Notes under the pieces: generated by a model
The model's database searches: none
Told to the model about the DNA's origin: nothing
Seen by the model: the letters and a program-made list of their open reading frames with translations, nothing else
IMG/VR virus record: IMGVR_UViG_3300045988_135886
Length of the DNA: 64,000 bases
DNA from: a virus
Reading direction: 5' to 3' (one strand)
Made by a program: the position numbers and the translations under genes
Part shown: piece by piece, positions 19,500 through 64,000 of the stretch
Layout: each line of letters starts with the position of its first letter
How positions within the stretch are numbered: position 1 is the stretch's first letter

Positions 19500-19600
19500 T
19501 TACTTAACACATAATTCATATTATCATAATTTTGGAAAAAAGTAAAGTTTTTTATTTTGTAAGTAAAATTAGTGTAATTTTGTACAACGGAGGGATGTAT

Positions 19601-43881: not shown

Positions 43882-45167
43882 ACAGTTTCCTCCTCAATAA
43901 TTTCTTGTGCCTCTTCCATATCCGGTGTATCAGAGGAATCTTTTATCAATCCTTCAAGGACCTTGAAAGTGAAATTCTTGTGCTTATAAGCCTTAAAGCT
44001 ACTTCTATTATCAATTCTTACAACTACACCTTCTCTAACATGTGTCACCCCTATTGGATCAGGCCCATCATAATATTTTTCCACACGCTCCATAAGATCT
44101 TCTTTAGTAGTAAACAGGAATTTATCAAATTCAGGTACATGTTTAACTCCTAAACGATCACACCAATTCTTTACTTCTTCCCATGGAATCTCTGTAATAA
44201 CTCCATCTTCATTGGTCATAGTCATTCTATAAACATAAATATCAGAAGTACCAGGAGTACACCCATAAGAGAACACTGTTTCATCACCGTAAAGCTTCTT
44301 AACTTCTTTATCTTTAATTTTAGCGTTGGAACAGGTTCCCATAATGGTCTGCTCTGTACCATCAACCCATCCTACAATTTCATAAAATACTTCCATTCCT
44401 TTTGGCAGTCTGTCAATAAAGTAGTCATGATATTTCTGTCTAAATTTATCATTCCCATAGTAACCGCCTTCAAATACAACTCTTCTTGTTCCAGTAACTA
44501 TTTTCCATTCTTTGATAACAGGAGCCGGTCTACAAAAAAGTTTCTGTAGTAGAGTCTTTTTCTTAGTAGTTACTTCTATTGCATTTGCTGTTCGACCAGA
44601 TGTGCCATGCATTTTCAAAGTAATGTAACAAGTATCTCCTGGTTTAAAGGCATTTAAGTTATATGCTAACTGTTCTGTATCAGCATGTTCTTTAAAATAA
44701 GGAAATTTGTTTTTTAAATTTGGAGTTTTTACTTTCGGACCATTGTTAGATTTTTTATGATTTGATCTTGGAATATATTTTTTACAGATAACTGTCCCAT
44801 TAAGTACAGTAATTTGATCTCCTAAAGATAACTTATTTATATCAGTCCATTTGCTAAGAGATTCTACTGGTAAAACCAATCCTTCTGATTTTTCACCTCG
44901 CAGTCTCATAGCTTTAATGTTTCGTTTTACAGGATCAAGATATCCACCTGTAGTTGTTCCATCTTCATTTTTAATACGCAGCAAATTGTTTTCTTTTGCA
45001 AATTCTTCTCCTAGCTGACCATCAACCGGGAAAAATACAACTTTCTGCCCTTCGTAATAACTTAAATCAACAATAACCGTATTTCCAAAAACGGTACCAA
45101 GCTGGAGCCTATCAGCATTGCTGTGTTTACGAAGTTGCTTAAGCTCAGTAATGTAAGCACAATACAT
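43878..45167 (-). CDS. ATP-dependent RNA ligase-like nucleotidyltransferase with an N-terminal OB/tRNA-binding-like domain
   Basis: 'KHSNADRLQLGTVFGNTVIV' (tRNA_bind-like) and 'ITLKMHGTSGR' (lysine nucleotidyltransferase motif I, K-x-(D/H)-G). Confidence 0.5.
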   Translation of the reverse strand: MYCAYITELKQLRKHSNADRLQLGTVFGNTVIVDLSYYEGQKVVFFPVDGQLGEEFAKENNLLRIKNEDGTTTGGYLDPVKRNIKAMRLRGEKSEGLVLPVESLSKWTDINKLSLGDQITVLNGTVICKKYIPRSNHKKSNNGPKVKTPNLKNKFPYFKEHADTEQLAYNLNAFKPGDTCYITLKMHGTSGRTANAIEVTTKKKTLLQKLFCRPAPVIKEWKIVTGTRRVVFEGGYYGNDKFRQKYHDYFIDRLPKGMEVFYEIVGWVDGTEQTIMGTCSNAKIKDKEVKKLYGDETVFSYGCTPGTSDIYVYRMTMTNEDGVITEIPWEEVKNWCDRLGVKHVPEFDKFLFTTKEDLMERVEKYYDGPDPIGVTHVREGVVVRIDNRSSFKAYKHKNFTFKVLEGLIKDSSDTPDMEEAQEIIEEETV

Positions 45168-45333: not shown

Positions 45334-45891
45334 TTATAAACACGTAGCTCCTCCTGTTATTTCTTCTAAAGTTCTAGGAGTATAATTCAGCAGCATTGCT
45401 CCGACATTATACATTTTACATGGTGTATTATATAGATTTTCCATTTCATACTTTGTTCTTTGCATCATATTATTTTCAAAACCTGTATGTACATGTCCAT
45501 ATAAATGATACCAACCATAGTAATGATTCTTAAAACAAGGAATCGGATAATGACAGAGAATAATACTCTCTTTTGGATTAAGGTATAGTTCTTTATAATC
45601 AACTATTTCTACAAACAAATTCTGTAAATCTTTGTTTTTCAGAATCTTATTATCATGATTTCCTTTTATTAAATGAATCCTACCATTTAGCTGGCTATAA
45701 TACTCTAATGTTTTAGTTGATCCATACCAACTAATATCTCCCAAAAGATAAACATCATCATCTAAGCCAACTACTGAATTCCAATTATTTTTAATAGTTT
45801 CATCGTTCTCTTCTATTGTCTTAAATGGTCTAGCATCGAATGCCAATGCATTTGTGTGACCAATATGTAAGTCTGAAATATAATAATTCAT
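45334..45891 (-). CDS. Calcineurin-like metallophosphoesterase
   Basis: The 'ISDLHIGH', 'LGDISW', 'GNHD' and 'GHVH' motif series. Confidence 0.7.
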   Translation of the reverse strand: MNYYISDLHIGHTNALAFDARPFKTIEENDETIKNNWNSVVGLDDDVYLLGDISWYGSTKTLEYYSQLNGRIHLIKGNHDNKILKNKDLQNLFVEIVDYKELYLNPKESIILCHYPIPCFKNHYYGWYHLYGHVHTGFENNMMQRTKYEMENLYNTPCKMYNVGAMLLNYTPRTLEEITGGATCL

Positions 45892-47041: not shown

Positions 47042-47887
47042 TTAATTCACCCTTATAATCTGTTCATACAAACAAATATCCTTATCAGAAACTGCAAGAT
47101 TTTGATGATAATGTCCAAAAATATTTTTTCTATAATCAACATTGCACCTTACTTCTTCCAGATAATTAGTTAACTTATCCGGTTTATACAATCCATGTGA
47201 TAATAATGCTGCTGTAGAAGAAGCTGTACAATGTGTTAGGATAAAATCTACTTTATTATCATGTTCTGCCAGGTTCTTTATACCTTCATCCATCTCTTCT
47301 TGATTCGGCATTTCTCGCTCCCACCATGAAATGTGATTGATGCGGTACATTTTATCCGGATCATCCCTCCATTCCTTTACTCTTGGATCGTCAATCTCTA
47401 ATACTCCATCTGAAATATCATGACTTGCAGCCCCTCCAAAGGTAAAGAATTTTAAATCGTCTATCTCAAACACCTGTCCTCTCATAAGATGAATTATTGA
47501 TGGTTTAATAAAATGCACCTTACCACCATGCCATTCTTCTACTGGATAAGAATCTAATATGTCGTAATTTTCATGATTACCATCAATAAAGAGTGTTGTG
47601 AAATGCTTCTCTTCAAGCCAATTCAAATACCATCTCTGTTGTGGTGAATCTCTCCATATCCCAAAATCTCCAAGAACAATTACATAATCATCTTTAGTCA
47701 TCTCTCTTTGTTCTGGGAACGAGTCCATATTTAATCTATGGATCCAACCCCCATGTGTATCACCCGTAATCCAAATTATTTCCACCACCTCCAACAATAT
47801 GTAGCGATTGAAAATCCTATAAGAATCATGAAATATGCTATAGGTATCGCAAAAAACATTTTCATAATTGAAATTAGTAAAATACAC
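47042..47887 (-). CDS. Calcineurin-like metallophosphoesterase (start uncertain)
   Basis: The 'ITGDTHGG', 'LGDFG', 'GNHEN' and 'GHYH' motifs. The track start overlaps the upstream membrane gene by ~110 nt. A TTG/GTG start near 47785-47797 is more plausible. Confidence 0.65.
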   Translation of the reverse strand: MYFTNFNYENVFCDTYSIFHDSYRIFNRYILLEVVEIIWITGDTHGGWIHRLNMDSFPEQREMTKDDYVIVLGDFGIWRDSPQQRWYLNWLEEKHFTTLFIDGNHENYDILDSYPVEEWHGGKVHFIKPSIIHLMRGQVFEIDDLKFFTFGGAASHDISDGVLEIDDPRVKEWRDDPDKMYRINHISWWEREMPNQEEMDEGIKNLAEHDNKVDFILTHCTASSTAALLSHGLYKPDKLTNYLEEVRCNVDYRKNIFGHYHQNLAVSDKDICLYEQIIRVN

Positions 47888-48922: not shown

Positions 48923-49894
48923 TTATTTATTTTCAACAGTTGCTACATTGCCTGATGTTAATTCTCCTGCGTCAACAATTGTTGCAGCGTTTCCACCCTG
49001 TACCTTCGGCACATCACCATTCCATTTATCAATTTTCTGTTTCTCAATAAGCTCTGGAGTAAGAGACTCGGCAATTTTCTTATTTGCTTCTGCTTCAGCA
49101 TCCGCTTTAATTCTTGTTGCTTCCGCTTTACCTTCAGCAGTAATCTTCGCCTGTTCAGCCTCAATAGCGGCCTTTTCTTTATCCTGTTCTGCTGCAATAA
49201 GAGCAACTTCTTTATCTTTATCTGCCTGTACCTTTGCAGTCTTAGCTTCAATATTTGCAAGTTCCAGTTCCTGCTGTGCATTTACTTTCTTCTGAATAGC
49301 TGCCTGAGTTTCGTCATCGGTTGAAATCGAAGTAAAGTTTACAGTATCAATGATAATTCCATATGGCTCAAATTTCTTTTTTAAGTATTTGTCAAGTGCT
49401 TCATTCAGTTCCTGGCGTTTATCACCAAATACATCTGTTACCGGATACTTAGCAGTCACTTCCTGTGTCCACGCTTTCATCTTTGGTTTAATGAAAGTAT
49501 TTTTTACACTTTCTCCGGACTGACCTTTAAATTTTGTAAATACATCAGCAACTTGATCCTGATCGAACTTATAAGAGAATTCCAAATCAACAAGAAGCTG
49601 TTTTCCATCAGCAGTAGGTGTCTTAAAACTCTCATCTTTTGGTGAATCACCTTTATCTTCTGAAGTCAGATAAGACTGTTCAATACCAATTGAATACAGT
49701 GATGTTTTTACTGTAGGTGAAATCAAATTCCATCCCTGTGGAAGAGTATCTTTTGAAATTCCACCGTTCATCTTGTATTCTACAGCTACATAACCAGCAG
49801 GAACTCTTACTGTGCACTTTGCTATACAAATTAATCCTGCTGCAATTATTACTGCTAATCCAACCCCACCTAAAAAACCTTTTTTCTTTTTCAT
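48923..49894 (-). CDS. SPFH/Band-7 (prohibitin/HflKC-like) membrane scaffold protein
   Basis: N-terminal TM ('GGVGLAVIIAAGLICIA'), an SPFH-like core ('VPAGYVAVEYKMNGG..') and a C-terminal Ala/Glu/Lys coiled coil ('EAEQAKITAEGKAEATRIKADAEAEANKKIAES'). Confidence 0.65.
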   Translation of the reverse strand: MKKKKGFLGGVGLAVIIAAGLICIAKCTVRVPAGYVAVEYKMNGGISKDTLPQGWNLISPTVKTSLYSIGIEQSYLTSEDKGDSPKDESFKTPTADGKQLLVDLEFSYKFDQDQVADVFTKFKGQSGESVKNTFIKPKMKAWTQEVTAKYPVTDVFGDKRQELNEALDKYLKKKFEPYGIIIDTVNFTSISTDDETQAAIQKKVNAQQELELANIEAKTAKVQADKDKEVALIAAEQDKEKAAIEAEQAKITAEGKAEATRIKADAEAEANKKIAESLTPELIEKQKIDKWNGDVPKVQGGNAATIVDAGELTSGNVATVENK

Positions 49895-50061
49895 TACTCA
49901 TTCCCCTTATCTTTTTCTTTATTTTCTTCTCTATTTATTTCGTCTGTTGCATCTTTCCAAATTCTATACAAGAATCGTCCGAATGGATAAAACAATGCAG
50001 ATAATAGGAACCATAAAATTACTGCTCCAACCAATACTAAAAATACAAATACTGGATTCAT
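49894..50061 (-). CDS. Small single-TM protein upstream of the SPFH gene
   Basis: The ATG at 50061 follows GGAGAGAG. 'MNPVFVFLVLVGAVILWFLLSALFYPFGRFLY' followed by an acidic/basic tail. 1-nt overlap with the SPFH start. Confidence 0.45.
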   Translation of the reverse strand: MNPVFVFLVLVGAVILWFLLSALFYPFGRFLYRIWKDATDEINREENKEKDKGNE

Positions 50062-50071
50062 ACTCTCTCCT

Positions 50072-50323
50072 TTATAATTCAATACCTTCCATAACAGCTC
50101 TAGCTTCTAAGATAGCTAAATAGTTTGCCATAGCATCAATCTGAATATTATAAGTACTTCTTGGACATGTTGGCTCAAAACTAAGAGTTCCATTGTCCCA
50201 TTTAAAAAGCATAGACTGTAAACCTCTGAATCTAAGCATTAACTGATAATACTCAGCTTTAAATCTTTCTTTATAATCTGGGCTAACCATCATTTCTGTT
50301 GTTTCTTTTAATGTTTTTACCAT
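50072..50323 (-). CDS. Hypothetical protein
   Basis: The ATG at 50323 follows AAAGGAG. No motif that could be confidently named. Confidence 0.4.
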   Translation of the reverse strand: MVKTLKETTEMMVSPDYKERFKAEYYQLMLRFRGLQSMLFKWDNGTLSFEPTCPRSTYNIQIDAMANYLAILEARAVMEGIEL

Positions 50324-50474
50324 GTTATTTATCTCCTTTATGTTCTTTAATATCATTTACGAGTGTCCAAGTGAAAAAAGCTACTAGCATTAAACTAAAT
50401 AAATTTTTATAAGTAATAAGATCTACTAATGATATTGCTATAAAAATAGCATATCAAGGATGATAAAAAATTTG

Positions 50475-50897
50475 TTAAACTTCATTTAATTCATCTCTCA
50501 CTCTCATAAGTATCTTCCCAAGCCTATTTTCACCAACTCCATCTACAGTTCCCCAAATAGTGTCTCCCCAAGTATTACCCTCTTCCAAATATTCATCTCC
50601 TGTAGCAAGTAATTTTTCCTTAAGGTCTGGATTCTGAGTGAATTTAGCCAGTACGATTTCATACATTACTTTATCTTTCACTTCTTCCCAATCTGATCTC
50701 AAATCAATCTTTCTACCTGCTGCCTTTGCCTCTGATGGGCTAGCTTGAGAAAATAACTGGAATTTTAGTCTACGATTTTTTGTTTTCTGTGCTTGAAAAG
50801 CTGCTTCATTATTTGTATAGTCCCATCCGTTATAACTTACCGGTGCCATATAAAAGTTACTTAAAAAGTAATAATCTCCAGTAAAACTATTAATCAT
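50475..50897 (-). CDS. NADAR (YbiA/DUF1768) family protein
   Basis: 'YFLSNFYMAPVSYNGWDYTNNEAAFQAQKT' and '..GNTWGDTIWG' match the NADAR signature. The ATG at 50897 lies 7 nt after AAGGAAGGA. Confidence 0.7.
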   Translation of the reverse strand: MINSFTGDYYFLSNFYMAPVSYNGWDYTNNEAAFQAQKTKNRRLKFQLFSQASPSEAKAAGRKIDLRSDWEEVKDKVMYEIVLAKFTQNPDLKEKLLATGDEYLEEGNTWGDTIWGTVDGVGENRLGKILMRVRDELNEV

Positions 50898-50910
50898 TCT
50901 TTTTCCTTCC

Positions 50911-51093
50911 TTAATAATCACTACAAGTTACTGTCAAACTTACAAATCCATCATTTTGCTCAAAAGATGTAATAAGCTCATCTTTTACCAATTCTTCTAC
51001 TATATCTCTGTCAGTTATTTTTGTTCCAATTAATTCAGGATCAGTCAAGTTGTATTCAGCTTCTACAGTGATCACTCTTTTTGTTGGTATCAA
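50911..51093 (-). CDS. Small hypothetical protein (start unclear)
   Basis: The track start is TTG. The frame is open much further upstream but has no ATG/GTG/TTG there. Confidence 0.25.
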   Translation of the reverse strand: MIPTKRVITVEAEYNLTDPELIGTKITDRDIVEELVKDELITSFEQNDGFVSLTVTCSDY

Positions 51094-51200
51094 AATTTCT
51101 TTCTCACATGCATCATCAATTGGTTTATTTAATATTCTTTTTCCTCTTTGCGTAATATCACCTCCATATTTTATTTCATTGTTTAACCTCCTTAAGTGTA

Positions 51201-51221
51201 GGTGAGGAATCGAACCTCACC
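51201..51221 (-). other. tRNA T-arm-like hairpin (not an intact tRNA)
   Basis: The minus strand reads GGTGAGG-TTCGATT-CCTCACC, a perfect T-loop consensus. No D arm or anticodon arm could be folded upstream. Confidence 0.4.
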
Positions 51222-51326
51222 TTAACCTTTTGTTACTACACTTATTTTCTCTTCCCTACAAAGAACCCAACTAAGAAACAGGCTAATAAGCATACCGCAA
51301 ACACGCCTATATTCAACACTATCATT

Positions 51327-52076
51327 TTATTTGCCTTTCTTTGCTTTCAGTTCCTGCAGCTTTTTATCAATTTCATCATCTTTCATTTTCTTATCCAGAC
51401 GCTGTTTCTGTACAGTAGTAGAACTTTCATAAGCGATCCTAGCTCCATCAGCAGCTTCTTTCTGCTTTTTAACTCCGTCACGTACTTTCTCTAACATCTT
51501 TTCCTCTTCGCTGGAACATACTCCTGGCGTTACATTAAAAGCTTTTGATGCCTGAGCAGTCTCCAAAGTTAAAACAGCACTTTCTTTTTCTGCTTTTAAA
51601 TCATTAAGTTGCTGCTGTAATACTTCTACTTTTTCTTTCTGTACATCAGCATTTTCTTTCCATTCTTTTAATGTATTTTTAATAAAATCAATCTTATCAT
51701 TCAGCTCCTGTTGTTCTTTTAAGTAGACTTTTGCCGCTTCGTCATCTCCTCGATCCACACAAGCATTTACATTTACATCTGCTTTCATGGCATCTTTCTT
51801 CAAATGGAACAAATCATCTTCATAATTAGAAATCTTACCAAGCATCTGCTGATATCTTACATTTTCCTGCTGAAGTTCATCTTCTTTCTTCTCAATAGCG
51901 GCATTATAATATGCTTTAGCTCCTTCAGGTGTAGACGCATCTTTCTGAATCGCTTCGTTTGCCGTGCCAGATGCTCTTATCCTTACTCTTTTTCCAATTT
52001 TACTATTAAAAAAGAAACAAAGTCCTACGAGTACTAAAATAACAATTATAATAATTGCTCCAGCTGTAATATTCAT
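51327..52076 (-). CDS. PspA/IM30-like coiled-coil protein with an N-terminal TM helix
   Basis: N-terminal 'AGAIIIIVILVLVGLCFFF', then a long heptad-rich helix with PspA-like segments ('..CVDRGDDEAAKVYLKEQQELNDKI..', '..QQQLNDLKAEKESAVLTLETAQASKAF'). Confidence 0.45.
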   Translation of the reverse strand: MNITAGAIIIIVILVLVGLCFFFNSKIGKRVRIRASGTANEAIQKDASTPEGAKAYYNAAIEKKEDELQQENVRYQQMLGKISNYEDDLFHLKKDAMKADVNVNACVDRGDDEAAKVYLKEQQELNDKIDFIKNTLKEWKENADVQKEKVEVLQQQLNDLKAEKESAVLTLETAQASKAFNVTPGVCSSEEEKMLEKVRDGVKKQKEAADGARIAYESSTTVQKQRLDKKMKDDEIDKKLQELKAKKGK

Positions 52077-52714
52077 TAGTCTCTCCCCTCATCAATATCA
52101 AGCCCAAAGTTTTTAAACAGTTCTGTCATACCTCCTACATAACCGGAACCTAATGCCTGGAATTTGAATCCATCTCCGTAACGGTATAATTTACCCATTT
52201 CTACTGCATTCAATTTTTCAAAGTTTTCATTCTCAGACAGATCATATTCATACTTATCACCATCTGGATTGTCGTAATCACAAATTGTCATAATTGCATT
52301 GGAGACCATTCCAAAATTCTGCATACGCTGTAAGGCCCTAAAAATTGTTAAGCAGATAGTAAATTCTGTTTTATCTTTCGGGAAAGTATCAGCATGCACA
52401 ATGAAATATTCGTCATAATGCTTTCCATTGAAAATCATTCCCTGAGAATCATCACCAGTTTTATTGTCTCCTGAATAGTCTACCCAAGGATATGCAGAAC
52501 CATCTTCATAGGTTTTATAGTTTACTAAATCTTCTGGATACACTACTTTACGACTTGAATCTGTTAAAAATCCATTGATATCAAAGTCAATGTCTGCTTC
52601 ACCAGCATAACGGTTCTGATCCCAATTGACTCCAATAAAGAAATTCTTAATGCCTGTACCATCTTCTTTTACCATACTAATTTTCTGATTTTTGCTCATG
52701 TTGATTACTGCCAT
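52076..52714 (-). CDS. TerD-family (tellurium-resistance/stress, Ca2+-binding fold) protein
   Basis: 'FFIGVNWD', 'DIDFDINGFL' and 'SGDNKTGDDSQG' correspond to the TerD signature (..GLGWD.., ..DLD.., ..GDN.TG.G.GD). Confidence 0.75.
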   Translation of the reverse strand: MAVINMSKNQKISMVKEDGTGIKNFFIGVNWDQNRYAGEADIDFDINGFLTDSSRKVVYPEDLVNYKTYEDGSAYPWVDYSGDNKTGDDSQGMIFNGKHYDEYFIVHADTFPKDKTEFTICLTIFRALQRMQNFGMVSNAIMTICDYDNPDGDKYEYDLSENENFEKLNAVEMGKLYRYGDGFKFQALGSGYVGGMTELFKNFGLDIDEGRD

Positions 52715-52731
52715 ATTTCTTTATCTCCTTT

Positions 52732-53499
52732 TTATTTATTATTCAGCCAGTCTTTATACTGACGAAGAATCTCTGTATATAACTGTTCATCAGACATTTT
52801 ATTCATGTCTTTTACTGCTGTAAAACCAGTGTTATCATGTTTTCTACCTTTCATATCATCAAGAGATTTTAAATAGTCAAAATCTTCATCTCCAATTCCT
52901 ATGAACTGCACGAAGATGTTGTACTCTGAAAGCTCTTTAATAACTGCATTGGTGGCAAAAGTATCACTGTTCTCACCATCTGTAATAAAAATGATAAATG
53001 CTGGAATCTCACTTGGCTCAATATCTTTATAATATGTAACCATTTCTTTCAATACAGGAGCATAATTAGTACCACCCATATACATATGAGCTTTTTTCAT
53101 AACATTTTTAACATAACTACTATAATTATCAGCGTTAGCAGCTTTTAAGCGCTCTGCTCCATTTGAGAACAGCCAACTCTCAAGTTCTCCATTATCGTCA
53201 AATCTTAGAGCAATAGGCAACAAACGAGAAATGGTTTCCTGTACAGATCCATTATCATACAGCCAATCCATACTTCCTGAATAATCCATTGCAAGAGCTA
53301 CTCTAGCCGTATGTTTTGTCATATCAATCTTGCTTCCCTTAGACATATCAATAAGTACTTTGCCAAGATTTTCATTGTGCTTAGACATATCAATTGTCTG
53401 TAACTTTTCTTCATATACAGGTTGCTGAGTTACAGCAGAAGATAACTCTACTGCTGCTTCCTCATCTTTTTTTCCGAATAATTTTCCCAAAAATCCCAT
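52732..53499 (-). CDS. vWA-domain protein of the TerF-C-terminal/TerY type
   Basis: MIDAS motif 'ALAMDYSGSM', 'GGTNYAPVL' and 'AFIIFITDGEN'. Adjacent to TerD. Confidence 0.65.
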   Translation of the reverse strand: MGFLGKLFGKKDEEAAVELSSAVTQQPVYEEKLQTIDMSKHNENLGKVLIDMSKGSKIDMTKHTARVALAMDYSGSMDWLYDNGSVQETISRLLPIALRFDDNGELESWLFSNGAERLKAANADNYSSYVKNVMKKAHMYMGGTNYAPVLKEMVTYYKDIEPSEIPAFIIFITDGENSDTFATNAVIKELSEYNIFVQFIGIGDEDFDYLKSLDDMKGRKHDNTGFTAVKDMNKMSDEQLYTEILRQYKDWLNNK

Positions 53500-53500
53500 T

Positions 53501-56122
53501 TTAGTTACTTCCTTTCTTACAAATTGCTTTTCTAATCCAATCTACAGGCACAACCATAAATGCTGTCACTAAGACTACAATCCACTGTTTAGCATCCATT
53601 GGAGTTGTCTGTACTAGATTTCCTACAAAGTTACACAAAACTACAGTCATTGCAAAAATACCCAATGCGATATACACAAATAATTTGTTATTTTTAATTC
53701 CTTTGAAAAGATTCATACTATCTGTTCTAATAGTGAATCCATTAAATACTGCCATTAGACACAATAAAGCGAATCTCGCTGTCATAGCCGAAAGTTTTGT
53801 TGTAAACATATTTCCAACTGGACCAAATGTAATTACACCAAATAAAGCAATAAATACAATTGAACTTAATGCAATTCTCCCTTTCGCTCCACGGATAAAT
53901 AATCCGGATCCTTTCATGATAGGCTCTTCATTCATATATTCCTCTTTTGGCGGTTCTCCACCAAAGCTTAATGAGTTAAGTGAATCCATGATGATATTTA
54001 CAATAAGGATCTGAACTGCTGCTAATAGAGCAGAGCCACCAGAAATAATTGGAAATACCATACTTAAGATCAACAACGAAATATTGATAGGTAGCTGGAA
54101 TTCAAGGAACATCATAATGTTATGCATAAATGTTCTACCAAGTTCGACTGCCTTTACCACACTTGCAAAATTATTGTCTGTCAAAACAATATCTGCTGCT
54201 TCTTTTGCTACATCAGATCCGTCTTGCATTCCAAAGCCTACATCTGCTTTCTTTAGTGCAGGAGCATCGTTCACACCGTCTCCGGTCATTGCCACAGACA
54301 TTCCAATTTCTTGCGCTAATGTTACAAGACGAAGCTTCGTATTCGGTGAGCATCTGGAAATTACTCTTAACTGTGGAATAATTTCTTTTACTTTTACATC
54401 TGACATTGCCTCAAACTCATCATTGGTAACTGCTAAGTCTCCAGGCTTATAAATGCCAGCTTCCATAGCAACAGCCTTAGCAGTCTCCATACAGTCACCA
54501 GTAATTTCAATTACCTGAATTCCAGCTTTATGAGCAATTTTTACTGCTTCTGGAACTTCATTCCTAACCGGGTCAACAACTCCAATGACTCCAAGGAGAT
54601 TCATTTCATCGGGGAGACCATCATCAGTTTTATCTGAGATAGTCAATGCAATACATCTCATTGCCTTCTCTGTCAATCCCTTAATATGGCTCTTTAAAGC
54701 TTTTCTTTTTTCTTCTGTCAGCTCAGTTGCAATGCCATCATTATCAAGATAAAATTTACACTTCTCAATTAATTTCTCTGGTGCGCCTTTATAAACAGTA
54801 AAATCATTTGCTCCATTATTTAAAGTAACTGCAGAGAATTTATTTTCACTACTAAATGGAACACGTTTTTTCATGATAGCTTTATTCTGTATTTTTTGTG
54901 CATCTTCAGGAGAAAGCATATCAAGCACTGCTCGATCAATTGAATTGCCACCAGTGATATTCCCATTAGAATCAAACACTGCACTATTATTCATACAAAT
55001 GTTTAAATCAATTAGCTCGTTGAGCGGACTTTCCTTATTAAAAATATCCTGACAGTTACCGTTAATCATAACTGTAGAAGTCATTTCACCTGTTGTGAGA
55101 GTTCCTGTCTTATCCGTACAAATTAAATTAACATATGCCAATTCAGGAATTTTACCAGTATTCTTCGCAAGAATATTGAATTTTTCCATTGTCGATACAT
55201 TCTGTTTAGTTACAAGTTTTACAATGAGTGGCAGACCTTCCGGTACAGCCGCAACAATAATTGTTAATGCATTTGAGATATTCTGTGCTACTTTCTGAAT
55301 ATTTTCAAGAATGTTTCCTGAGAAATACTGACTTAAACTTCCAGCATTTAAGATACCTGTAATTGTCATAATTACAAATGCTAATACTGCCGCAATTGTT
55401 CCCCATTTTGAAATAAAATCACACAAATGATCCAGAGCAATATCAAGAGCTGTCTTAGGAGGCTCTAAAGTCTGCATTTTGACAAGAGTATCACCGTTAA
55501 CTGTATTAACACCAACATCTGTAACAATCATTTTTCCTTCACCAGACATAATAACTGTTCCTGCAAAGAGCGAACACTGATCCGTATATGCAGCAGTAGA
55601 TGTTGTTTTAACATGCTTATAATTAGCACTAGGAATTTTTCTACATTCTTTTGTCTCTCCATTGATAGCGGCATTATTAACAGAAATTTCTCCTTCAACA
55701 ATAAAACCATCTGCAAAAATCTCTTGTCCAGTTCTCAATAAAACTAAATCACCTACTACCAGATCATCTTTATTAATTGTCTGTACGCTTCCATCTCGAA
55801 CAACATCACAATATCTAACTGCCGTTTTTGCTCTTAACTCTGCTGCAGATTTCTGTATTCCTAGACCTGTCTTAACAGCAATTTCAGTAACAATAGCTAA
55901 AACTACTATAATCATTACAGGTTCAGAAAGAGCCATTACTCCCATAGCTCCTAGAACTAACTGGAATAAAGCAATTATTATTAGAATCATAGTAATTGGC
56001 TCAGTTAATGCTTCCTTAGCAAAATGATACCATTTTTTCAATTCAGGTTCCGGAAGCTTATTACTTCCATATGTAGTCCTACTAACCCCTACTTCGCTAC
56101 TTTTTAATCCATTAAAATTCAT
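53501..56122 (-). CDS. P-type cation-transporting ATPase (type IIA, Ca2+-ATPase-like)
   Basis: 'ICTDKTGTLT' (phosphorylation site), 'PEGLPLIV' (the TM4 motif of Ca2+ pumps), 'TGDGVNDAPALKKADVG', and an N-terminal cation-ATPase-N-like segment. Confidence 0.8.
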   Translation of the reverse strand: MNFNGLKSSEVGVSRTTYGSNKLPEPELKKWYHFAKEALTEPITMILIIIALFQLVLGAMGVMALSEPVMIIVVLAIVTEIAVKTGLGIQKSAAELRAKTAVRYCDVVRDGSVQTINKDDLVVGDLVLLRTGQEIFADGFIVEGEISVNNAAINGETKECRKIPSANYKHVKTTSTAAYTDQCSLFAGTVIMSGEGKMIVTDVGVNTVNGDTLVKMQTLEPPKTALDIALDHLCDFISKWGTIAAVLAFVIMTITGILNAGSLSQYFSGNILENIQKVAQNISNALTIIVAAVPEGLPLIVKLVTKQNVSTMEKFNILAKNTGKIPELAYVNLICTDKTGTLTTGEMTSTVMINGNCQDIFNKESPLNELIDLNICMNNSAVFDSNGNITGGNSIDRAVLDMLSPEDAQKIQNKAIMKKRVPFSSENKFSAVTLNNGANDFTVYKGAPEKLIEKCKFYLDNDGIATELTEEKRKALKSHIKGLTEKAMRCIALTISDKTDDGLPDEMNLLGVIGVVDPVRNEVPEAVKIAHKAGIQVIEITGDCMETAKAVAMEAGIYKPGDLAVTNDEFEAMSDVKVKEIIPQLRVISRCSPNTKLRLVTLAQEIGMSVAMTGDGVNDAPALKKADVGFGMQDGSDVAKEAADIVLTDNNFASVVKAVELGRTFMHNIMMFLEFQLPINISLLILSMVFPIISGGSALLAAVQILIVNIIMDSLNSLSFGGEPPKEEYMNEEPIMKGSGLFIRGAKGRIALSSIVFIALFGVITFGPVGNMFTTKLSAMTARFALLCLMAVFNGFTIRTDSMNLFKGIKNNKLFVYIALGIFAMTVVLCNFVGNLVQTTPMDAKQWIVVLVTAFMVVPVDWIRKAICKKGSN

Positions 56123-56124
56123 TC

Positions 56125-57159
56125 TTAAATCTCTCCTAATACAATTCTTTCATTGACAGACATTACAAACTCTTCTATAGCTTTATAATTTGGTTTATCA
56201 GGCAATGAGGTATTCTTTGAATCATACTCAAGTCTTTTCTCTAACTCGTTTACCATTTCAAAAAATTCTGGGATAGGCTGACTGTTTGCATCCAAATATT
56301 CTCCATTACGTAGAGCCATAAGAAGCTCATGATCATCTTCTCTATATGTAATAATTTTGCCTTTTTCAAGAATATCAAAACACATAAGATACAATCTCAC
56401 TAAATGGCACATATGCTTTCCTAGCTTATTATGTTCTATGGCATGTCTGTTTCTTTTTCCAACTTTAGAGTAATCCTTAACAATATTTTTCATTTCAGCC
56501 CACATCCCCTGATAATCATTCAAAGGATAGTGCTTCAACTGGATATCCATAAATACTTCTGTTTCATAATCTTCCTGAATACCTTTATCTACATAAAGCT
56601 TTATTGCATCTTCTGGAAAATTGAAATACTTTTCAGGGAAAGTATAAAAAGCATTCATAATACTATTAAGAACATGCTGCATTCTTTCTTCTTGCCCTAG
56701 CTTTCTAGCAGCTTTATTATCAAGCCTTCTTAGCTGGCTTGTAGCATAGCCTCCAAAAGAATAGATCGCTTTCTTAGATAAAAACATTTCAGCATTATCA
56801 AGAAGTTCTTGACCAATTGGATGAATATAAAGATAATGTTCCGGCTTCAATCCTATCAGCTCAATTGTGTTTGGGTTGCAGTTTGACAATAGAGTTATCA
56901 ATTTATTAAAAGAATAGATTGTTGTATCTGTTGTTTCTTCCGTTACCTGATCAAAATTATGTGTAGGAATCAGGATTTCTTCTCTTTTATTTAAAGCACA
57001 ACCCCTAATATCCAGATCGGAGCTTTCTGTATCTGTACCATAAGCATGAGACCCACCTAAGCCTAATAGAATTATGTTGCTCCCCAGGTGCTCGTCCGCT
57101 CTTAAGAAATCATAATGTTCACTTTTCAACAACTTCTTGATTTTCTCTATCTTCATCAA
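56125..57159 (-). CDS. Pol-beta-superfamily nucleotidyltransferase (RlaP-like?)
   Basis: 'LGLGGSHAYGTDTESSDLDIRG' is the GS...DxD minimal nucleotidyltransferase motif, followed by a ~250-aa helical C-terminal region. Confidence 0.55.
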   Translation of the reverse strand: MMKIEKIKKLLKSEHYDFLRADEHLGSNIILLGLGGSHAYGTDTESSDLDIRGCALNKREEILIPTHNFDQVTEETTDTTIYSFNKLITLLSNCNPNTIELIGLKPEHYLYIHPIGQELLDNAEMFLSKKAIYSFGGYATSQLRRLDNKAARKLGQEERMQHVLNSIMNAFYTFPEKYFNFPEDAIKLYVDKGIQEDYETEVFMDIQLKHYPLNDYQGMWAEMKNIVKDYSKVGKRNRHAIEHNKLGKHMCHLVRLYLMCFDILEKGKIITYREDDHELLMALRNGEYLDANSQPIPEFFEMVNELEKRLEYDSKNTSLPDKPNYKAIEEFVMSVNERIVLGEI

Positions 57160-57646: not shown

Positions 57647-58030
57647 TCAGATAATCTGTAAGTTTTCATCACCAATAAGCCATGCAGAATCTAAAATAAA
57701 ATTTTCATATGGATCACCATTGTCATTCCAGAACTCATCCGATCCAACCTCCCAATCGCCCAATGTTCCAGCATTAAAGTTACCGTATAAATAATCTGCC
57801 ACATATTCTAAAAACGCATCTGCAGCCTTATCATAATCTTCTTTTCTTATTAACTCTTCTACATCCGGCTCAAGATCAATCCATTTATGCTGTTCAATCA
57901 AAAAAGATTTAGCGTTGTCTCTTACTTTCAGCAGTGAGTTTTTAATGTCTGTCAATGTTGCATCTTTCTTTTTTGCAATGATATAACTTGAAGACGAACT
58001 ATTAGTAACAAATCCTCTTCTTATTTTCAT
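57647..58030 (-). CDS. 'GFVTNSSSSS' N-terminal-motif protein, paralogue A
   Basis: Begins 'MKIRRGFVTNSSSSSYIIAKKK'. The acidic/aromatic C-terminal half has diverged from the neighbouring paralogue. Confidence 0.45.
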   Translation of the reverse strand: MKIRRGFVTNSSSSSYIIAKKKDATLTDIKNSLLKVRDNAKSFLIEQHKWIDLEPDVEELIRKEDYDKAADAFLEYVADYLYGNFNAGTLGDWEVGSDEFWNDNGDPYENFILDSAWLIGDENLQII

Positions 58031-58425
58031 TAACCATCTCTCCCTTCTCCTTCAGCAACTTCTATATCAGCAAATCCATTTACTTCCGTAATAGCATCTA
58101 TTGCTTCATTCATAGAGAAATCATAATCATATACAGCATCACCCCATTCATCATAATAAGCATCGTTCCTGTCCTCAATTACGATATATTCTCCATCAGG
58201 GTGCTTTTCTAAAATGTCATCAACTCCATAAATGACCGCTCCGCACCAACTAGCACCAAGCTCACCGGACCAGTTTCTTTCATCATTTACACCAGTGACA
58301 TCTAATACATCAAGATTGAACTGATCAATTATCTTCTGAGCTTTTTCTTTGTCAGCAATCCTTGCAAAGCAAATAATGAAACTGCTAGAGCTTGAATTAG
58401 TAACAAATCCTTTCCGTATTTTCAT
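58030..58425 (-). CDS. 'GFVTNSSSSS' N-terminal-motif protein, paralogue B
   Basis: Begins 'MKIRKGFVTNSSSSSFIICFARIAD'. 1-nt overlap with paralogue A. Confidence 0.45.
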   Translation of the reverse strand: MKIRKGFVTNSSSSSFIICFARIADKEKAQKIIDQFNLDVLDVTGVNDERNWSGELGASWCGAVIYGVDDILEKHPDGEYIVIEDRNDAYYDEWGDAVYDYDFSMNEAIDAITEVNGFADIEVAEGEGRDG

Positions 58426-58627: not shown

Positions 58628-59776
58628 TTACATGTCCTCCATTGAATAAATTACTCTTTCTAAACTTCTTTTTGATTTGAAACACTTCTTAAGTAAACAC
58701 CACATAATGGCTTTTTCAGTATCATCTTCGTCTTCCCAATCATTTAAGACTACAGAAGTCTGTGTTCCATCTTTGAATCCTACAGTAGTTCTAATTTTCC
58801 CTGTAGCAATATCTTTTGTTCTTCCTACAAATGAAATATCATCTTTAGACAATGTTTTATAAACACGTTTATCAAAATCATCTTTAGATATAATGTATAC
58901 ATCAACGCCTAAAGCCTCTTTAATTTGACGTTCACAGCTCCTAAACTCTTTATCGAGTGCATGCTTATGATTAATAGTTTCTTGAGCCTTCTCTAAAGCT
59001 ACAGCAATATCTTCTGGTGAGCAACAATATGTCATATTATTATCCTCCTTGTAATTGAAATACGGCATTGGTTTCATTTTAAACTTATTTTTTGTATGTA
59101 AACGATCAATCCGTCTTTTAATTTCCGGATCATCGCAAATACCTGTACGAATATATCTATCTAATACTGCATAGGTAAATCCGAAGTTATCTTCATCTGA
59201 TTTACCGCATAACCCATCTGATGGTGTTTTCTCTACATATTTTTTAGGTAATCCTAAGTAATAACCGATTCTTTTTACTTCACTCTTTGTGAACTGTGCC
59301 AATGGAGCAAAGTCTCCTGCTGAGTCACCATATCTAGTGGAGTATCCGATGTAATCCTCACTAAGGTTACATGTATTAACCACTCTTCCATTGTGTGACT
59401 GCGATACCCCGTATAGAGTGGCCATTCTTAGTCTAGGAGCGAGATTAATTAATGTCTGATCTGTTACATTAAATGCAGCATCAATTTGATCAATAATATC
59501 ATCATAAGCTGATCCAATATTAATAGTAAGATAATCAATGTTTAATACATGCTGGCAAATATCATAAGCCACACAAATATCATCCTGTTTATAATTTGGC
59601 ATAATTACTCCAAGAACCTTGTCAGCTCCAATAGCTTCTACACATAACTCAGCAGCCACTAAAGAATCAACACCACCGGAGATACCTACTATAAAATTAC
59701 ATCCTGGGCCGTTCTCTTCTCTCCAATCTCTAATCCACTGAATACAATCATTTGTTGCTTTTTCTACATTAAACAT
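58628..59776 (-). CDS. nadE: NH3-dependent NAD+ synthetase (NadE-like) fused in frame to a ~135-aa C-terminal domain
   Basis: PP-loop 'GISGGVDS', 'APRLRMATLYG' and 'TPSDGL' match NadE. An internal AAGGAGG + ATG (59035) precedes the extra C-terminal domain. Confidence 0.7.
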   Translation of the reverse strand: MFNVEKATNDCIQWIRDWREENGPGCNFIVGISGGVDSLVAAELCVEAIGADKVLGVIMPNYKQDDICVAYDICQHVLNIDYLTINIGSAYDDIIDQIDAAFNVTDQTLINLAPRLRMATLYGVSQSHNGRVVNTCNLSEDYIGYSTRYGDSAGDFAPLAQFTKSEVKRIGYYLGLPKKYVEKTPSDGLCGKSDEDNFGFTYAVLDRYIRTGICDDPEIKRRIDRLHTKNKFKMKPMPYFNYKEDNNMTYCCSPEDIAVALEKAQETINHKHALDKEFRSCERQIKEALGVDVYIISKDDFDKRVYKTLSKDDISFVGRTKDIATGKIRTTVGFKDGTQTSVVLNDWEDEDDTEKAIMWCLLKKCFKSKRSLERVIYSMEDM

Positions 59777-60704: not shown

Positions 60705-61178
60705 CTACTCCATAAATGATGAAACATGTACGGTTACAAAATCACTATGTGCACGAATATAATCCAAAGTTTTAACTGTATCTTCTACAATTGCAATCTG
60801 AGATGGCTTAAGTCCGAGCTTTTGTTGCAGCGTTTGAAGCACAGTAAGTTTTTCTGTCTTTTCTAAAGTGAAATAGATATTATCATCTGGCAGATCATAA
60901 TTGTCTTTTATAAAAGCTCTTTTACCAGGAATTTCATTTAAAGGACTCTTTGAACAGGTATATACTTTATTCACGCCTTTATTCTGAATAAACTCCTGCA
61001 TTAATTTGATCGGACGCACATCTTTATACGGATTCTCACCGGAAGCTACAAGTCTGTCCCATTCATCGTCAGTCATACTATGACTTAATTCAGAAAACTC
61101 ATACGGAGCAAGTACTCCATCTACATCCATTACTACAATCACATCATCTTTTAATAAATAATCTGTAATTTTACTCAT
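60705..61178 (-). CDS. HAD-superfamily phosphatase / 5'(3')-nucleotidase-like
   Basis: The 'VVMDVDGVLA' DxDG motif I at the N-terminus. The size (157 aa) fits a small cap-less HAD or NT5C-like enzyme. Confidence 0.5.
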   Translation of the reverse strand: MSKITDYLLKDDVIVVMDVDGVLAPYEFSELSHSMTDDEWDRLVASGENPYKDVRPIKLMQEFIQNKGVNKVYTCSKSPLNEIPGKRAFIKDNYDLPDDNIYFTLEKTEKLTVLQTLQQKLGLKPSQIAIVEDTVKTLDYIRAHSDFVTVHVSSFME

Positions 61179-62646
61179 CTTTGTTTCTTCCGTTTAATCT
61201 GTCTCTGATTTCTTTAAATATTTCTGTATGATATATTTCACCGTCTTTAAATACAGTTTTTAATGCCCCATCATAAACAAAGCTGTCATATCCATCTCTG
61301 CACCTTAATTCTCCATTTTCATCGTAATATACATGACAACATCCTTTATGAGATTTCTTTAAATGGCTTACATCTGTCTTTGGATCTTTGTAAATCATAA
61401 TCGGTTGTCCGTTAACTTCTCCAAATGTAGCTTTCATAGCAATGCCGAACATATCTCTGGTTACAACGACCATACGTCCATCAGGTTCTACAACTGCCGA
61501 GAAACAAAAAGCCCCAACTCCAAATACAATGTTGTTTGCAGCGAATCCTTTCTTCTCAAGTTCTTCCCATACCTTTTTTACATTGTTAAGAGTACAGCCA
61601 TCACCATAGATAATTCCAATATGAGGGTCCAGTACTTTGTAACCTTTGCTATTTACTGATCCTTTAAATGTATTCCAGAGTTTTTCGATAGTCTTAACTG
61701 AAATCTCTACCATATCACCAGAATCCGGACGAACCAAGAGCTTACCATTGTGCTGCATAATTTCTTTTTTGCAAGCTGGAAGAATATTGTCAATCATGTT
61801 CCAGTAATCATATGTATCAGATACCATGCTGAAAGATGCATTCGGATATAATTCTGTAAGTAGTCTTTTCACAAATGTAATTTCGTCTCCGTCCACAGCA
61901 TAATTTGAAGCCATGACCGCATGTTCGGTAGAAATCGCACCAATTCCAATATGACTCACGCTACAGTCATTGAAATAATATTTGTCCAAATAATCAATTG
62001 CCGGGATCGTACTTGTCTTATCAAAGGATAATAGCCAAGCAACGGAGCATCTCTCTGCTTCTTCCATACAGGACATTCCACGCATTCCAAAGTCTGAGCA
62101 GGCCATTTCAGGTCTTAAAATGTCGTCGCAGGTCTTTTTATAGTAGAAATTTGCCAGTTCTCTGTACATATGTCCAATTGTTGCATGAGCACACGGCTTC
62201 CAAAGCTCAACCTGCAGAATACACTCAATCCACTGCACAACCCATGCAAAATCTGGATGTGTATTCGTGATTTCAATGCATGGCACTCCCATAGGCACTA
62301 ATGTACCTTCCGGCAATGCACGGATCTGAATCGGAAGATACCCTAATTCGTGAAGTTTAAGGATTGGAGAAATATCGTAATTTCCTTCTCCTAACTGAAT
62401 GTCCATACTAATTGTATAAAGTTCTTGAACTTCATCAGTGCTTAATTTAAAGAAATCTCTTTTAAAATATGTAATAAGATATTCTTTAATAAAAGCCTGC
62501 AGTCCGAAGAAAACCATATGATCCTGCTCCTTTAACATTGATCTTCTCGGAGTCCAATAAGAGACTAACTTCGTCAATCCTCTCGGAAACATATTGTGGT
62601 GTACTTGTTTGTAAGTATCGCTTAACAGAATTGCTAAGGTATCCAT
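61171..62646 (-). CDS. Nicotinamide phosphoribosyltransferase family protein (NAMPT/NadV-like; could be a NARP1 Namat)
   Basis: The size (491 aa) and 'LLSDTYKQVHHNMFP', 'FGMRGMS', 'SDTYDYW', 'VRPDSGD' and 'IIYGDG' follow the NAMPT pattern. Confidence 0.7.
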   Translation of the reverse strand: MDTLAILLSDTYKQVHHNMFPRGLTKLVSYWTPRRSMLKEQDHMVFFGLQAFIKEYLITYFKRDFFKLSTDEVQELYTISMDIQLGEGNYDISPILKLHELGYLPIQIRALPEGTLVPMGVPCIEITNTHPDFAWVVQWIECILQVELWKPCAHATIGHMYRELANFYYKKTCDDILRPEMACSDFGMRGMSCMEEAERCSVAWLLSFDKTSTIPAIDYLDKYYFNDCSVSHIGIGAISTEHAVMASNYAVDGDEITFVKRLLTELYPNASFSMVSDTYDYWNMIDNILPACKKEIMQHNGKLLVRPDSGDMVEISVKTIEKLWNTFKGSVNSKGYKVLDPHIGIIYGDGCTLNNVKKVWEELEKKGFAANNIVFGVGAFCFSAVVEPDGRMVVVTRDMFGIAMKATFGEVNGQPIMIYKDPKTDVSHLKKSHKGCCHVYYDENGELRCRDGYDSFVYDGALKTVFKDGEIYHTEIFKEIRDRLNGRNKDE

Positions 62647-63413: not shown

Positions 63414-64000
63414 TTATCTAAACCTCTCAATCAGTTCAATCTTAGGACTTTCCAGATTTGTCAGAATCGTATCTGTCGTATAAATCTTCTCAATCAATCC
63501 ATTGTTTTTCAAAAGCTCACCGTCATAAATCGTGTTCTCGCAATGAGTTACATAGAGATAAATCTTATTCACTCCTGCTTCTTTTAGTTTCTTAGCACTA
63601 TAATAAAAAGTACCGCCTTTGCTGCAGATATCATCTACAATAAGGATATCTTTACCTGGTAACTGATCAATTTCACCTGATAAATCTAAACCTTTAATCT
63701 CTCCAGTTTCCCAATCTCTATTCTTAATACCAAAAGTATATGGAAGATGTACTGCTGAAGAATATCGCTTCATGGATCCCGCATCCGGATAAAACATCAT
63801 AAGATTATTACTCGCAATCTTCTTAACAGTATCCTCAATCATTCGATTCGGGGATTCTACATGTACTTTATTAAATAATGCGGCAGATACATCAGAATGC
63901 GGATCTAAAACTTCTACTCTTCCAAAATGTAATGAATTAATAGTCTGAGCAAAATATTTTAAAGTAAATAATTCGTTCTCATGTTTAACTCGGTCCATAC
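63414..64000 (-). CDS. Ribose-phosphate pyrophosphokinase (Prs)-like protein, C-terminal part; 5' end probably beyond the window
   Basis: 'VEVLDPHSD' and the PRPP-loop 'ILIVDDICSKGGTF' match the second half of Prs-family enzymes. The segment seen aligns only from about residue 100 of a typical Prs. Confidence 0.6.
   Translation of the reverse strand, partial: MDRVKHENELFTLKYFAQTINSLHFGRVEVLDPHSDVSAALFNKVHVESPNRMIEDTVKKIASNNLMMFYPDAGSMKRYSSAVHLPYTFGIKNRDWETGEIKGLDLSGEIDQLPGKDILIVDDICSKGGTFYYSAKKLKEAGVNKIYLYVTHCENTIYDGELLKNNGLIEKIYTTDTILTNLESPKIELIERFR

Follow-up and report, generated by a model that had tools for sequence, protein, structure and literature searches.

Ter systems occur in jumbo phages (Iyer, Anantharaman, Krishnan, Burroughs and Aravind, 2021; PMC7824862, section 3.4.10), those of Caulobacter having abbreviated TerD-TerC-TerF-TelA operons, and a role against superinfecting phages has been proposed for phage-borne Ter genes (PMC7824862). 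A Ca2+ P-type ATPase has been reported, in a 2026 Sci Adv paper with a 2025 preprint (PMC12880540), from Jug phages, from a further 81 huge phages of the gut and from four phages with sizes of 159-197 kb, the affinities of these pump-bearing gut phages being to Bacteroidaceae or Bacillota, and the same paper tells of three terD genes in gut phages, one of them beside a pspA-like gene. The Jug pump is described there as being in an operon apart from terD and co-transcribed with an upstream protein of 77-91 amino acids, with both the terD/pspA and the pump genes being highly transcribed in the gut. Our subject is a cassette in which genes of these kinds are contiguous. It is at 51327-56122 on the minus strand of a 64,000-nt stretch of virus DNA (IMG/VR record IMGVR_UViG_3300045988_135886; here ‘the window’, to the whole of which all positions refer) and consists of genes for a P-type cation ATPase (the pump), a vWA-TerF-like protein, TerD and a PspA-like protein.

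Directly behind an RlaP-type nucleotidyltransferase gene (57159..56125, minus strand; 344 amino acids; Pol-beta fold; PF10127 at 3e-16, phrog_388 at 2e-52), and on the same strand as it, come the pump (56122..53501; 873 amino acids; Pfam E1-E2 domains), the stand-alone vWA protein (53499..52732; 255 amino acids; PF10138), TerD (52714..52076; 212 amino acids; PF02342) and the PspA-like protein (52076..51327; 249 amino acids; PF04012, below the gathering score). The successive gaps between nucleotidyltransferase, pump, vWA and TerD genes are 2 nt, 1 nt and 17 nt, the TerD and PspA-like genes share a 1-nt TAATG overlap at 52076, and a Shine-Dalgarno-like purine-rich run is ahead of each cassette start. 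On direct reading of the junctions, the preliminary description of this DNA as having four co-oriented genes with these spacings, and a 2-nt gap upstream of them, is exact.

The cassette is placed within a long co-directional, early-type gene array, its GC content is 35.1% versus 34.9% for the window, and its GC at third codon positions (GC3) is as in phage core genes. The window has phage genes for tail fibres, endolysin, split family-A DNA polymerase (PolA), ribonucleotide reductase (RNR), primase, DnaB-like helicase, Sak4, RNA ligase, NAD synthetase and NAMPT. A search of it for tRNA genes came up empty. A tyrosine integrase gene (19532-20794, plus strand; phrog_1 at 5e-66) is at the strand switch after the endolysin gene; this large phage, which encodes a polymerase, primase, helicase and RNR of its own, is therefore temperate. 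Its hosts are Lachnospiraceae of the gut (Blautia/Ruminococcus).

How does the locus compare with what has been described? TerD is known from several cultured phages – Bacillus phage YungSlug, Lysinibacillus phages, CcrColossus and Rhizobium phages – and in YungSlug two TerD genes a few genes apart are followed by TerC (PF03741, 1e-52) and, a few genes on, by a nucleotidyltransferase, with no pump. (The YungSlug 856-amino-acid ‘ATPase domain protein’ beside TerD was considered as a P-type pump and rejected: it has no Pfam match and YungSlug is absent from the tblastn matches.) Shared with phage Ter systems are TerD paralogues and a TerF-type vWA, a membrane transporter, a sub-membrane coiled-coil protein and carriage by large phages, and with YungSlug also the nearby nucleotidyltransferase. 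The cassette differs in having a P-type ATPase as transporter, a PspA/IM30-like coiled-coil protein, a vWA that is unfused to TerD and, in the layout with a vWA gene, a TerD with a variant metal loop; TerC, TerB and TelA gave no Pfam match in the cassette or the neighbours tested, and neither Pfam nor a search for paralogues found TerZ, TerA or TerE in the window. The Jug report (PMC12880540) and the cassette have in common that phages of the gut, some of them of Bacillota, encode a Ca2+ P-type ATPase. However, the cassette is one contiguous unit behind a 344-amino-acid RlaP nucleotidyltransferase, with no small upstream protein of the 77-91-amino-acid Jug type at this locus, whereas the Jug genes are split between operons; its hosts are Lachnospiraceae rather than Bacteroides/Phocaeicola, and the genomes of its carriers are mostly ~90-250 kb and temperate. 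Megablast with the 5.8-kb region gave no match among GenBank phages, and tblastn of the pump against them gave matches no more than 35% identical, most of which are short unannotated contigs that look like host DNA. The preliminary description had known of no such phage operon. That stands for the fused cassette, but not for its parts, since Ter operons, pumps and the terD-pspA pair have been published (PMC7824862, PMC12880540); the literature searched yielded no account of the contiguous arrangement, of its two layouts or of its exclusivity.

A conserved accessory unit of gut phages

A census of IMG/VR seeded with the pump alone gave 160 relatives, the best 80 of which (67-100% pump identity) were kept, on contigs that are mostly ~90-250 kb with some much shorter fragments. 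Pump, TerD and PspA-like genes are together in 76 of these 80 loci. The layout pump-vWA-TerD-PspA is present in 36 of the 80 and pump-TerD-TerD-TerD-PspA in 40; three loci are cut by a contig end, and in one (L033) unrelated genes come after pump-TerD. Across the census loci the gene lengths are maintained, as are the short spacers. Since the pump was the only seed, the presence of TerD and PspA-like genes directly downstream of it at this frequency means that the adjacency is not chance, and the co-conservation that had been predicted, with a neighbourhood survey proposed as the check on it, is what the survey found.

Might there nevertheless be no functional unit, just four unrelated accessory genes of a variable island that are co-inherited through phage kinship? 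The carriers found are indeed all large gut phages of one broad, related group, some loci share other window genes in their flanks, and operon signals could not be shown. However, L010-L012, L017, L019 and L021-L027 have only the cassette in common with the window, the flanks being different, and in both layouts the same functional set is kept. Within three of these loci (L010, L012 and L019) the pump is 89-98% and the vWA 98-99% identical to the window counterparts, but TerD is 84% and the PspA-like protein 60% identical, mixed identities that point to recombination inside the cassette, between vWA and TerD, with each of the functions retained. The linkage holds at 48% pump identity (L091: pump, vWA of 255 amino acids, TerD of 212 and a 246-amino-acid protein) and recurs at 35% as pump-TerD-TerD in the GenBank gut-phage fragment MT840059, whereas the nearest pumps in cellular contexts, 42-43% identical, adjoin TatD/ThiF genes and are without Ter or PspA genes. 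Finally, the ratio of non-synonymous to synonymous substitution rates (dN/dS) against nine close relatives is 0-0.16 for all four genes, which are under strong purifying selection. Mere co-inheritance is thus disfavoured, and we consider it very improbable.

Searches were also made from the PspA-like end. The 489 homologues of this protein, nearly all ~240-255 amino acids, are in a context that is always RlaP-pump-vWA-TerD-PspA, and a profile scan of 185,579 species genomes gave five PspA-like loci only, all five with pump and TerD; the subfamily has been seen inside the cassette only. Several of the species-genome loci are flanked by homologues of other phage genes of the window, among them those for integrase, dUTPase and RNA ligase. 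The loci are prophages from that same broad phage group. The sources name Blautia faecis and Ruminococcus sp. as hosts, and one member was deposited as Caudoviricetes sp. The cassette relocates within related phages, being ~5 kb from the integrase gene in L085. Pump, TerD with or without vWA, and PspA-like protein are therefore shown to be a conserved accessory unit of large temperate gut Bacillota phages that is inherited together.

A few loci are unusual. One 250-kb contig, IMGVR_UViG_3300029402_000234, has two vWA-layout cassettes ~190 kb apart (L009 and L022), with pumps 98% and 71% identical to that of the window; either two phages have been joined in a chimeric assembly or one genome carries the cassette twice. 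Damaged cassettes occur at L083 (5758-8279) and L084 (7008-8174), the pump being split into two open reading frames (ORFs) on one contig and an IS110 transposase being inserted between pump and vWA on the other.

The four proteins

The HMM check that had been proposed for each family has the P-type ATPase, the vWA-TerF-like protein and TerD passing Pfam, and all four family assignments of the preliminary description hold, that of PspA with support from profile and fold rather than from its Pfam score; its finer classification of the pump does not. Pfam matches of the pump are E1-E2_ATPase (4e-32), Cation_ATPase_C (3e-31) and Cation_ATPase_N (9e-10), with Hydrolase and Cation_ATPase also matching, and it matches phrog_12316 at 1e-122. 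The motifs INGET153, PEGLP294, DKTGT337, KGAPE445, DPVR517, TGD541 and GDGVNDAP614 can be read in the sequence, giving, with N- and C-terminal membrane domains, the full set of a type II P-type ATPase. It had been labelled as type IIA, but it is below the cut-offs of the SERCA-type model TIGR01116 (316.6 versus 703.4 bits) and the PMR1-type model TIGR01522 (408.7 versus 798.3 bits), and its top NCBIfam model is instead the PMCA-type (IIB/P2B) TIGR01517, where 508.3 bits against a cut-off of 507.05 is a marginal pass, yet ~100 bits above the next model. The best Protein Data Bank (PDB) matches are ACA8 (8qmp; 9e-104), LMCA1 (6zhf/9euq; 2e-91) and SPCA1.

Which ion, and how many per cycle? The Glu of PEGLP294 in M4, an M5 Asn, and N709 and D713 in M6 align with the ion-site residues of ACA8 and LMCA1, and in the same alignment the pump has Leu and Ala where two-site pumps carry extra acidic ligands, positions that we take to be equivalent to the second-site Ca2+ ligands of SERCA. 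These substitutions suggest one ion per cycle, as with PMCA and LMCA1, and the pump is likely to be a single-site exporter of Ca2+, possibly of Mn2+, that resembles them; Mn2+ in SPCA is handled by the same ligands as those kept here. Like ACA8/PMCA (P2B), LMCA1 and SPCA1 it has full catalytic motifs, PEGLP in M4 and N...D in M6. It differs from them in lacking a calmodulin-binding/autoinhibitory extension – its 873 amino acids align end to end with no regulatory extension at either terminus – and in having NGET (A-domain, residues 153-157) instead of the near-universal dephosphorylation motif TGES. That NGET is an oddity or defect peculiar to the phage protein is ruled out, as the 40+ bacterial representatives of the pump subfamily that are closest to it (P0121-P0165) have NGE[ST] as a rule. 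To anything outside the cassette clade the pump is 31-48% identical.

The vWA protein matches vWA-TerF-like PF10138 over residues 64-254 (1.4e-59; 202 bits versus a gathering score of 29.4), with weaker Pfam matches to Copine (7e-11) and VWA. Its metal-ion-dependent adhesion site (MIDAS) is complete, D72-x-S74-x-S76 (DYSGS72), T144 and D174 being invariant in the homologue alignment, where an N-terminal MG[FL]FxKLFGKK is also kept; after it come a variable linker and a conserved IDMSK...VLIDMSKGSKIDMTKH segment. The N-terminal element could possibly form an amphipathic membrane-binding helix. Homologues number 1149, and the best 120 of the 1149 are all at least 68% identical and of about the same length. 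TerF proper has an N-terminal TerD fused to vWA, whereas this vWA stands alone with TerD as the next gene. A single database member, P0321 (438 amino acids), has vWA-TerF-like and TerD domains fused in the order vWA-TerD, the reverse of classical TerF; either it is a real fusion or a stop codon has been lost.

The canonical 13-residue Ca2+-binding motif of TerD, reportedly described by Pan et al. in 2011, is GDN(R/L)TG(E/A)GDGDDE. The cassette TerD belongs to the family (PF02342 at 2e-34; 119 bits versus a gathering score of 25.3) and matches Klebsiella TerD (2kxt) at 8.5e-23. In the alignment with 2kxt it retains D-x-D-x-D, GDNKTG and the D/E after it, but in place of the GxGDG part of canonical GDNxTGxGDGDDE there is an 8-residue insertion, giving the variant metal loop GDNKTGDDSQGMIFNGKHYDE. 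Variant-loop TerD, GDN[KL]TG[DN]DSQGxxF[ND]GKHYDE, is in all vWA-layout cassettes, whereas the three TerD copies of the TerD-only layout have canonical GDNxTGxGDGDDE. No further TerD paralogue was found in the window.

With the PspA-like protein the assignment stands on the PDB profile and the predicted fold, though not on Pfam. PspA_IM30 (PF04012) matches at profile positions 24-219 with E 1e-6 and 29.0 bits, under the 33.9-bit gathering score; many of the homologues carry a precomputed PF04012 annotation. A profile of the family run against PDB has Vipp1/PspA first, at E 0.005 and in register. The AlphaFold2 model, with a mean predicted local distance difference test score (pLDDT) of 73.8, has a hydrophobic helix (3-26), a hairpin (50-109 and 112-180) and two more helices; the top 16 Foldseek matches of this model in PDB are all Vipp1/PspA, and E. 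coli PspA 1-144 (4whe) superposes on it with a TM-score of 0.78 and root-mean-square deviation of 1.6 A. Together the profile and fold matches support it as a divergent member of PspA/IM30 (ESCRT-III superfamily). TelA was tried as an identity for this coiled-coil protein and rejected: there is no TelA Pfam match at E <= 0.01, and structure and profile lead to PspA/Vipp1.

The hairpin and following helices are shared with PspA, Vipp1 and LiaH. However, where PspA/IM30 proteins have the amphipathic helix alpha0 for peripheral membrane binding, residues 3-26 here are a transmembrane-type helix, followed by basic KIGKRVRIR, a feature kept in two homologue alignments. From the anchor and basic stretch a cytoplasmic location is predicted for the coiled-coil domain. 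Also unlike the known systems, there are no PspB/C, LiaI/F or Toastrack partners. In the main text of a comparative survey of phage shock protein (PSP) systems there is no TerD, calcium or P-type ATPase (PMC11237479).

Proposed function and its alternatives

What might such a combination do? Our tentative preference, which has a reasonable prospect of being right without being held firmly, is for a Ter-type, Ca2+-coupled membrane-protection unit. The P-type pump appears to be in the place of TerC, and the transmembrane-anchored PspA-like protein in that of TelA, as non-orthologous substitutions; the positional analogy with TerC is drawn because of the gene order in YungSlug, and the role of TelA comes from PMC7824862. 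On this proposal the membrane of an infected or lysogenic cell would be perforated by phage DNA injection, superinfecting phages, pore-forming abortive-infection (Abi) effectors or early holin leakage, and external Ca2+ would flow into the cell. TerD, with its Ca2+-binding beta-sandwich, and the MIDAS vWA would bind metal and assemble under the membrane with a polymer of the transmembrane-anchored PspA-like protein, sealing or stabilizing the bilayer, after which the single-site PMCA/LMCA1-like pump, free of an autoinhibitory tail, would expel the Ca2+ and so reset the system. The net effect would be a cell that stays energized until the phage's own lysis programme. In the lytic cycle the benefit would be protection from pore-forming Abi effectors, superinfection damage and premature leakage, and to a lysogen it would be exclusion of other phages or tolerance of envelope stress.

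A membrane location for the unit is made plausible by the predicted transmembrane helix of the PspA-like protein and the conserved vWA N-terminus. The co-directional early-type array, the 2-nt gap, and neighbours for NAD salvage, NADAR and RNA repair favour, but do not prove, expression with early lytic genes. The preliminary description had suggested sensing or buffering of Ca2+ with membrane stabilization, whether directed against Abi effectors, at lysis timing or at exclusion, and such activities would be compatible with the proteins as we read them. On Ca2+ influx during phage infection or defence, a literature search gave nothing specific.

Several points count against protection by a Ca2+-coupled unit. 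The metal loop of TerD is altered in the vWA layout, so that its Ca2+ binding is not assured, and from its sequence the pump might instead carry Mn2+ or another divalent cation. In the Jug phages (PMC12880540) pump and TerD/PspA are in separate operons, so the linkage is not universal. Promoter and terminator scans gave counts equal to shuffled expectation and hence say nothing on operon structure, and six proteins searched with PADLOC 2.0 (including TerY-P) gave no match at E <= 0.01. Then there is the temperate nature of the phage, which makes a host-benefit role equally natural, and with the integrase and the prophage occurrences lysogenic readings stay alive.

One of these is superinfection exclusion or inter-phage competition, as has been proposed for Ter systems on plasmids and in jumbo phages. 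The unit would alter the membrane, or Ca2+ at its periplasmic face, together with the sub-membrane structure, so that incoming phages fail to inject or become established and the resident phage or prophage is shielded from them. Many Gram-positive phages need Ca2+ to inject or establish, classical ter operons inhibit phages and make cells resistant to colicins, and this very role has been explicitly proposed for phage-borne Ter genes (PMC7824862, section 3.4.10). Expression of exclusion from a prophage would be selected in a phage with an integrase, and the cassette moves about in related phages as accessory competition genes do. Nevertheless, Ca2+ export would raise, not lower, Ca2+ outside the cell, there is no match to a known exclusion protein family, no independent promoter or terminator was detected, and the cassette is here in the early/replication-side array away from the immunity/integrase region, though in L085 the integrase gene is close by. 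Exclusion seems rather unlikely, though it deserves serious consideration.

Lysogenic conversion would have the prophage give its Lachnospiraceae host Ca2+/Mn2+ efflux and tolerance of envelope stress, be it from bile acids, antimicrobial peptides, bacteriocins or metal/tellurite. Besides the integrase in the window, cassette proteins are on contigs up to 1.4 Mb and in the isolate assemblies of Blautia faecis and Ruminococcus sp. AM36-2AA, which indicate an integrated state, and prevalence is very high, with one PspA variant (P0050) being on at least 1000 contigs and in 1644 collection blocks. Ter, PspA and SPFH, a gene for the last of which is near the cassette, are classical envelope-stress functions, and for the Jug pump a competitive advantage through manipulation of host Ca2+ has been suggested (PMC12880540). 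However, a mere 2 nt separates the cassette from the preceding phage gene, there is no moron-like promoter/terminator pair, composition is wholly phage-like, as the GC values given above attest, and near-absence of the PspA-like subfamily from cellular genomes outside these phages, with just the five loci mentioned, would not be expected of a generally useful host trait. We think lysogenic conversion unlikely.

Eukaryotic cells repair their plasma membrane with ESCRT-III in a Ca2+-triggered manner, and copines combine C2 and vWA domains. By analogy, a Ca2+-binding beta-sandwich with a copine-like vWA, a polymer of the ESCRT-III superfamily and a PMCA-type pump could be likened to that machinery, although the sensors are not homologous, TerD being neither C2 nor ALG-2, and there is no Vps4-like ATPase in the cassette. 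A bolder version of membrane protection would thus have the cassette as a phage counterpart of Ca2+-triggered ESCRT-III repair: TerD as sensor, either with vWA or in the form of three paralogues, would nucleate the membrane-anchored PspA polymer at wounds, the PMCA-like pump, possibly regulated by TerD/vWA, would end the signal, and pore-forming Abi effectors would be neutralized. This we judge to be decidedly unlikely. If true, it would provide a concrete biochemical role for the TerD family and a new class of counter-defence.

Neighbouring genes and wider meaning

The preliminary description had the four genes continuous with that for the nucleotidyltransferase. The 2-nt gap is real here, but the link is a loose one: the RlaP gene adjoins the cassette upstream in 22 loci and elsewhere is downstream, up to ~6 kb off, or absent, so we treat it as a frequent neighbour rather than a cassette component. 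On the other side a candidate single-pass membrane peptide of 27 amino acids, MIVLNIGVFAVCLLACFLVGFFVGKRK (51242..51325, minus strand), starts 1 nt after the stop codon of the PspA-like gene. By a strict pattern, 10 of the 20 closest relatives have its ORF, with conservative substitutions only, and it was not detected in deeper lineages; evidence for it being a gene is weak, and it may not be one. Just beyond it, at 51196-51241 (minus strand), a hairpin GTGTAG...GGTGAGGTTCGATTCCTCACCTACAC resembles a tRNA acceptor/T-arm minihelix with a GGTTCGATTCC T-loop. As a tRNA-like element it was rejected, because ARAGORN found nothing, Rfam gave just a tmRNA T-arm at E 0.38, and none of the 20 closest relatives has it. 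In L081-L084 a gene for a CCA-adding enzyme is directly after the PspA-like gene.

At 1.4 kb downstream of the PspA-like gene is one for an SPFH/Band-7 membrane protein of 323 amino acids (48923..49894, minus strand; PF01145 at 2e-23, phrog_200), overlapped by an ORF for a 62-amino-acid membrane protein (49894-50082, minus strand), the two being both present or both absent in close relatives. In B. subtilis an SPFH protein, YdjI, tethers PspA to the membrane (PMC8581546). The nearness of SPFH and PspA-like genes is reminiscent of the PspA-YdjI pair, and the SPFH protein and its small partner could be a second membrane-organizing pair, one that partners the PspA-like protein in the manner of YdjI.

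Also on the minus strand are genes for an NADAR-domain protein (50475-50921), NAD synthetase (58628-59776), NAMPT (61171-62646) and a PRPP-synthetase-like protein cut by the window end (63414-63998); these look like an NAD+/ADP-ribose counter-defence set, and relatives also carry PARG. Genes of RNA-repair type are scattered around the cassette, namely, besides RlaP, those for RNA ligase (43878-45167, minus strand) and two metallophosphoesterases (45334-45891 and 47042-47887, minus strand). At 57647-58425 (minus strand) two adjacent paralogous small proteins, of 127 and 131 amino acids, both start with MKIR(R/K)GFVTNSSSSS, and Pfam has no match for either. A small protein at 50072-50356 (minus strand) belongs to the crAss001_48-related family PF21825 (3e-17), here in a Bacillota phage.

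For decades TerD and Ter systems have been without a mechanism, and the cassette ties TerD genetically to a likely Ca2+ pump and a PspA/ESCRT-III-like protein. The compact ~4.8-kb unit can be moved into model hosts, making the question of what TerD senses or controls directly testable, and phage Ca2+ pumps, so recently reported, gain defined partners. With the cassette being very common in human-gut metagenomes, in phages of the abundant Lachnospiraceae, any effects on host Ca2+ homeostasis, envelope stress and competition between phages would be of ecological relevance.

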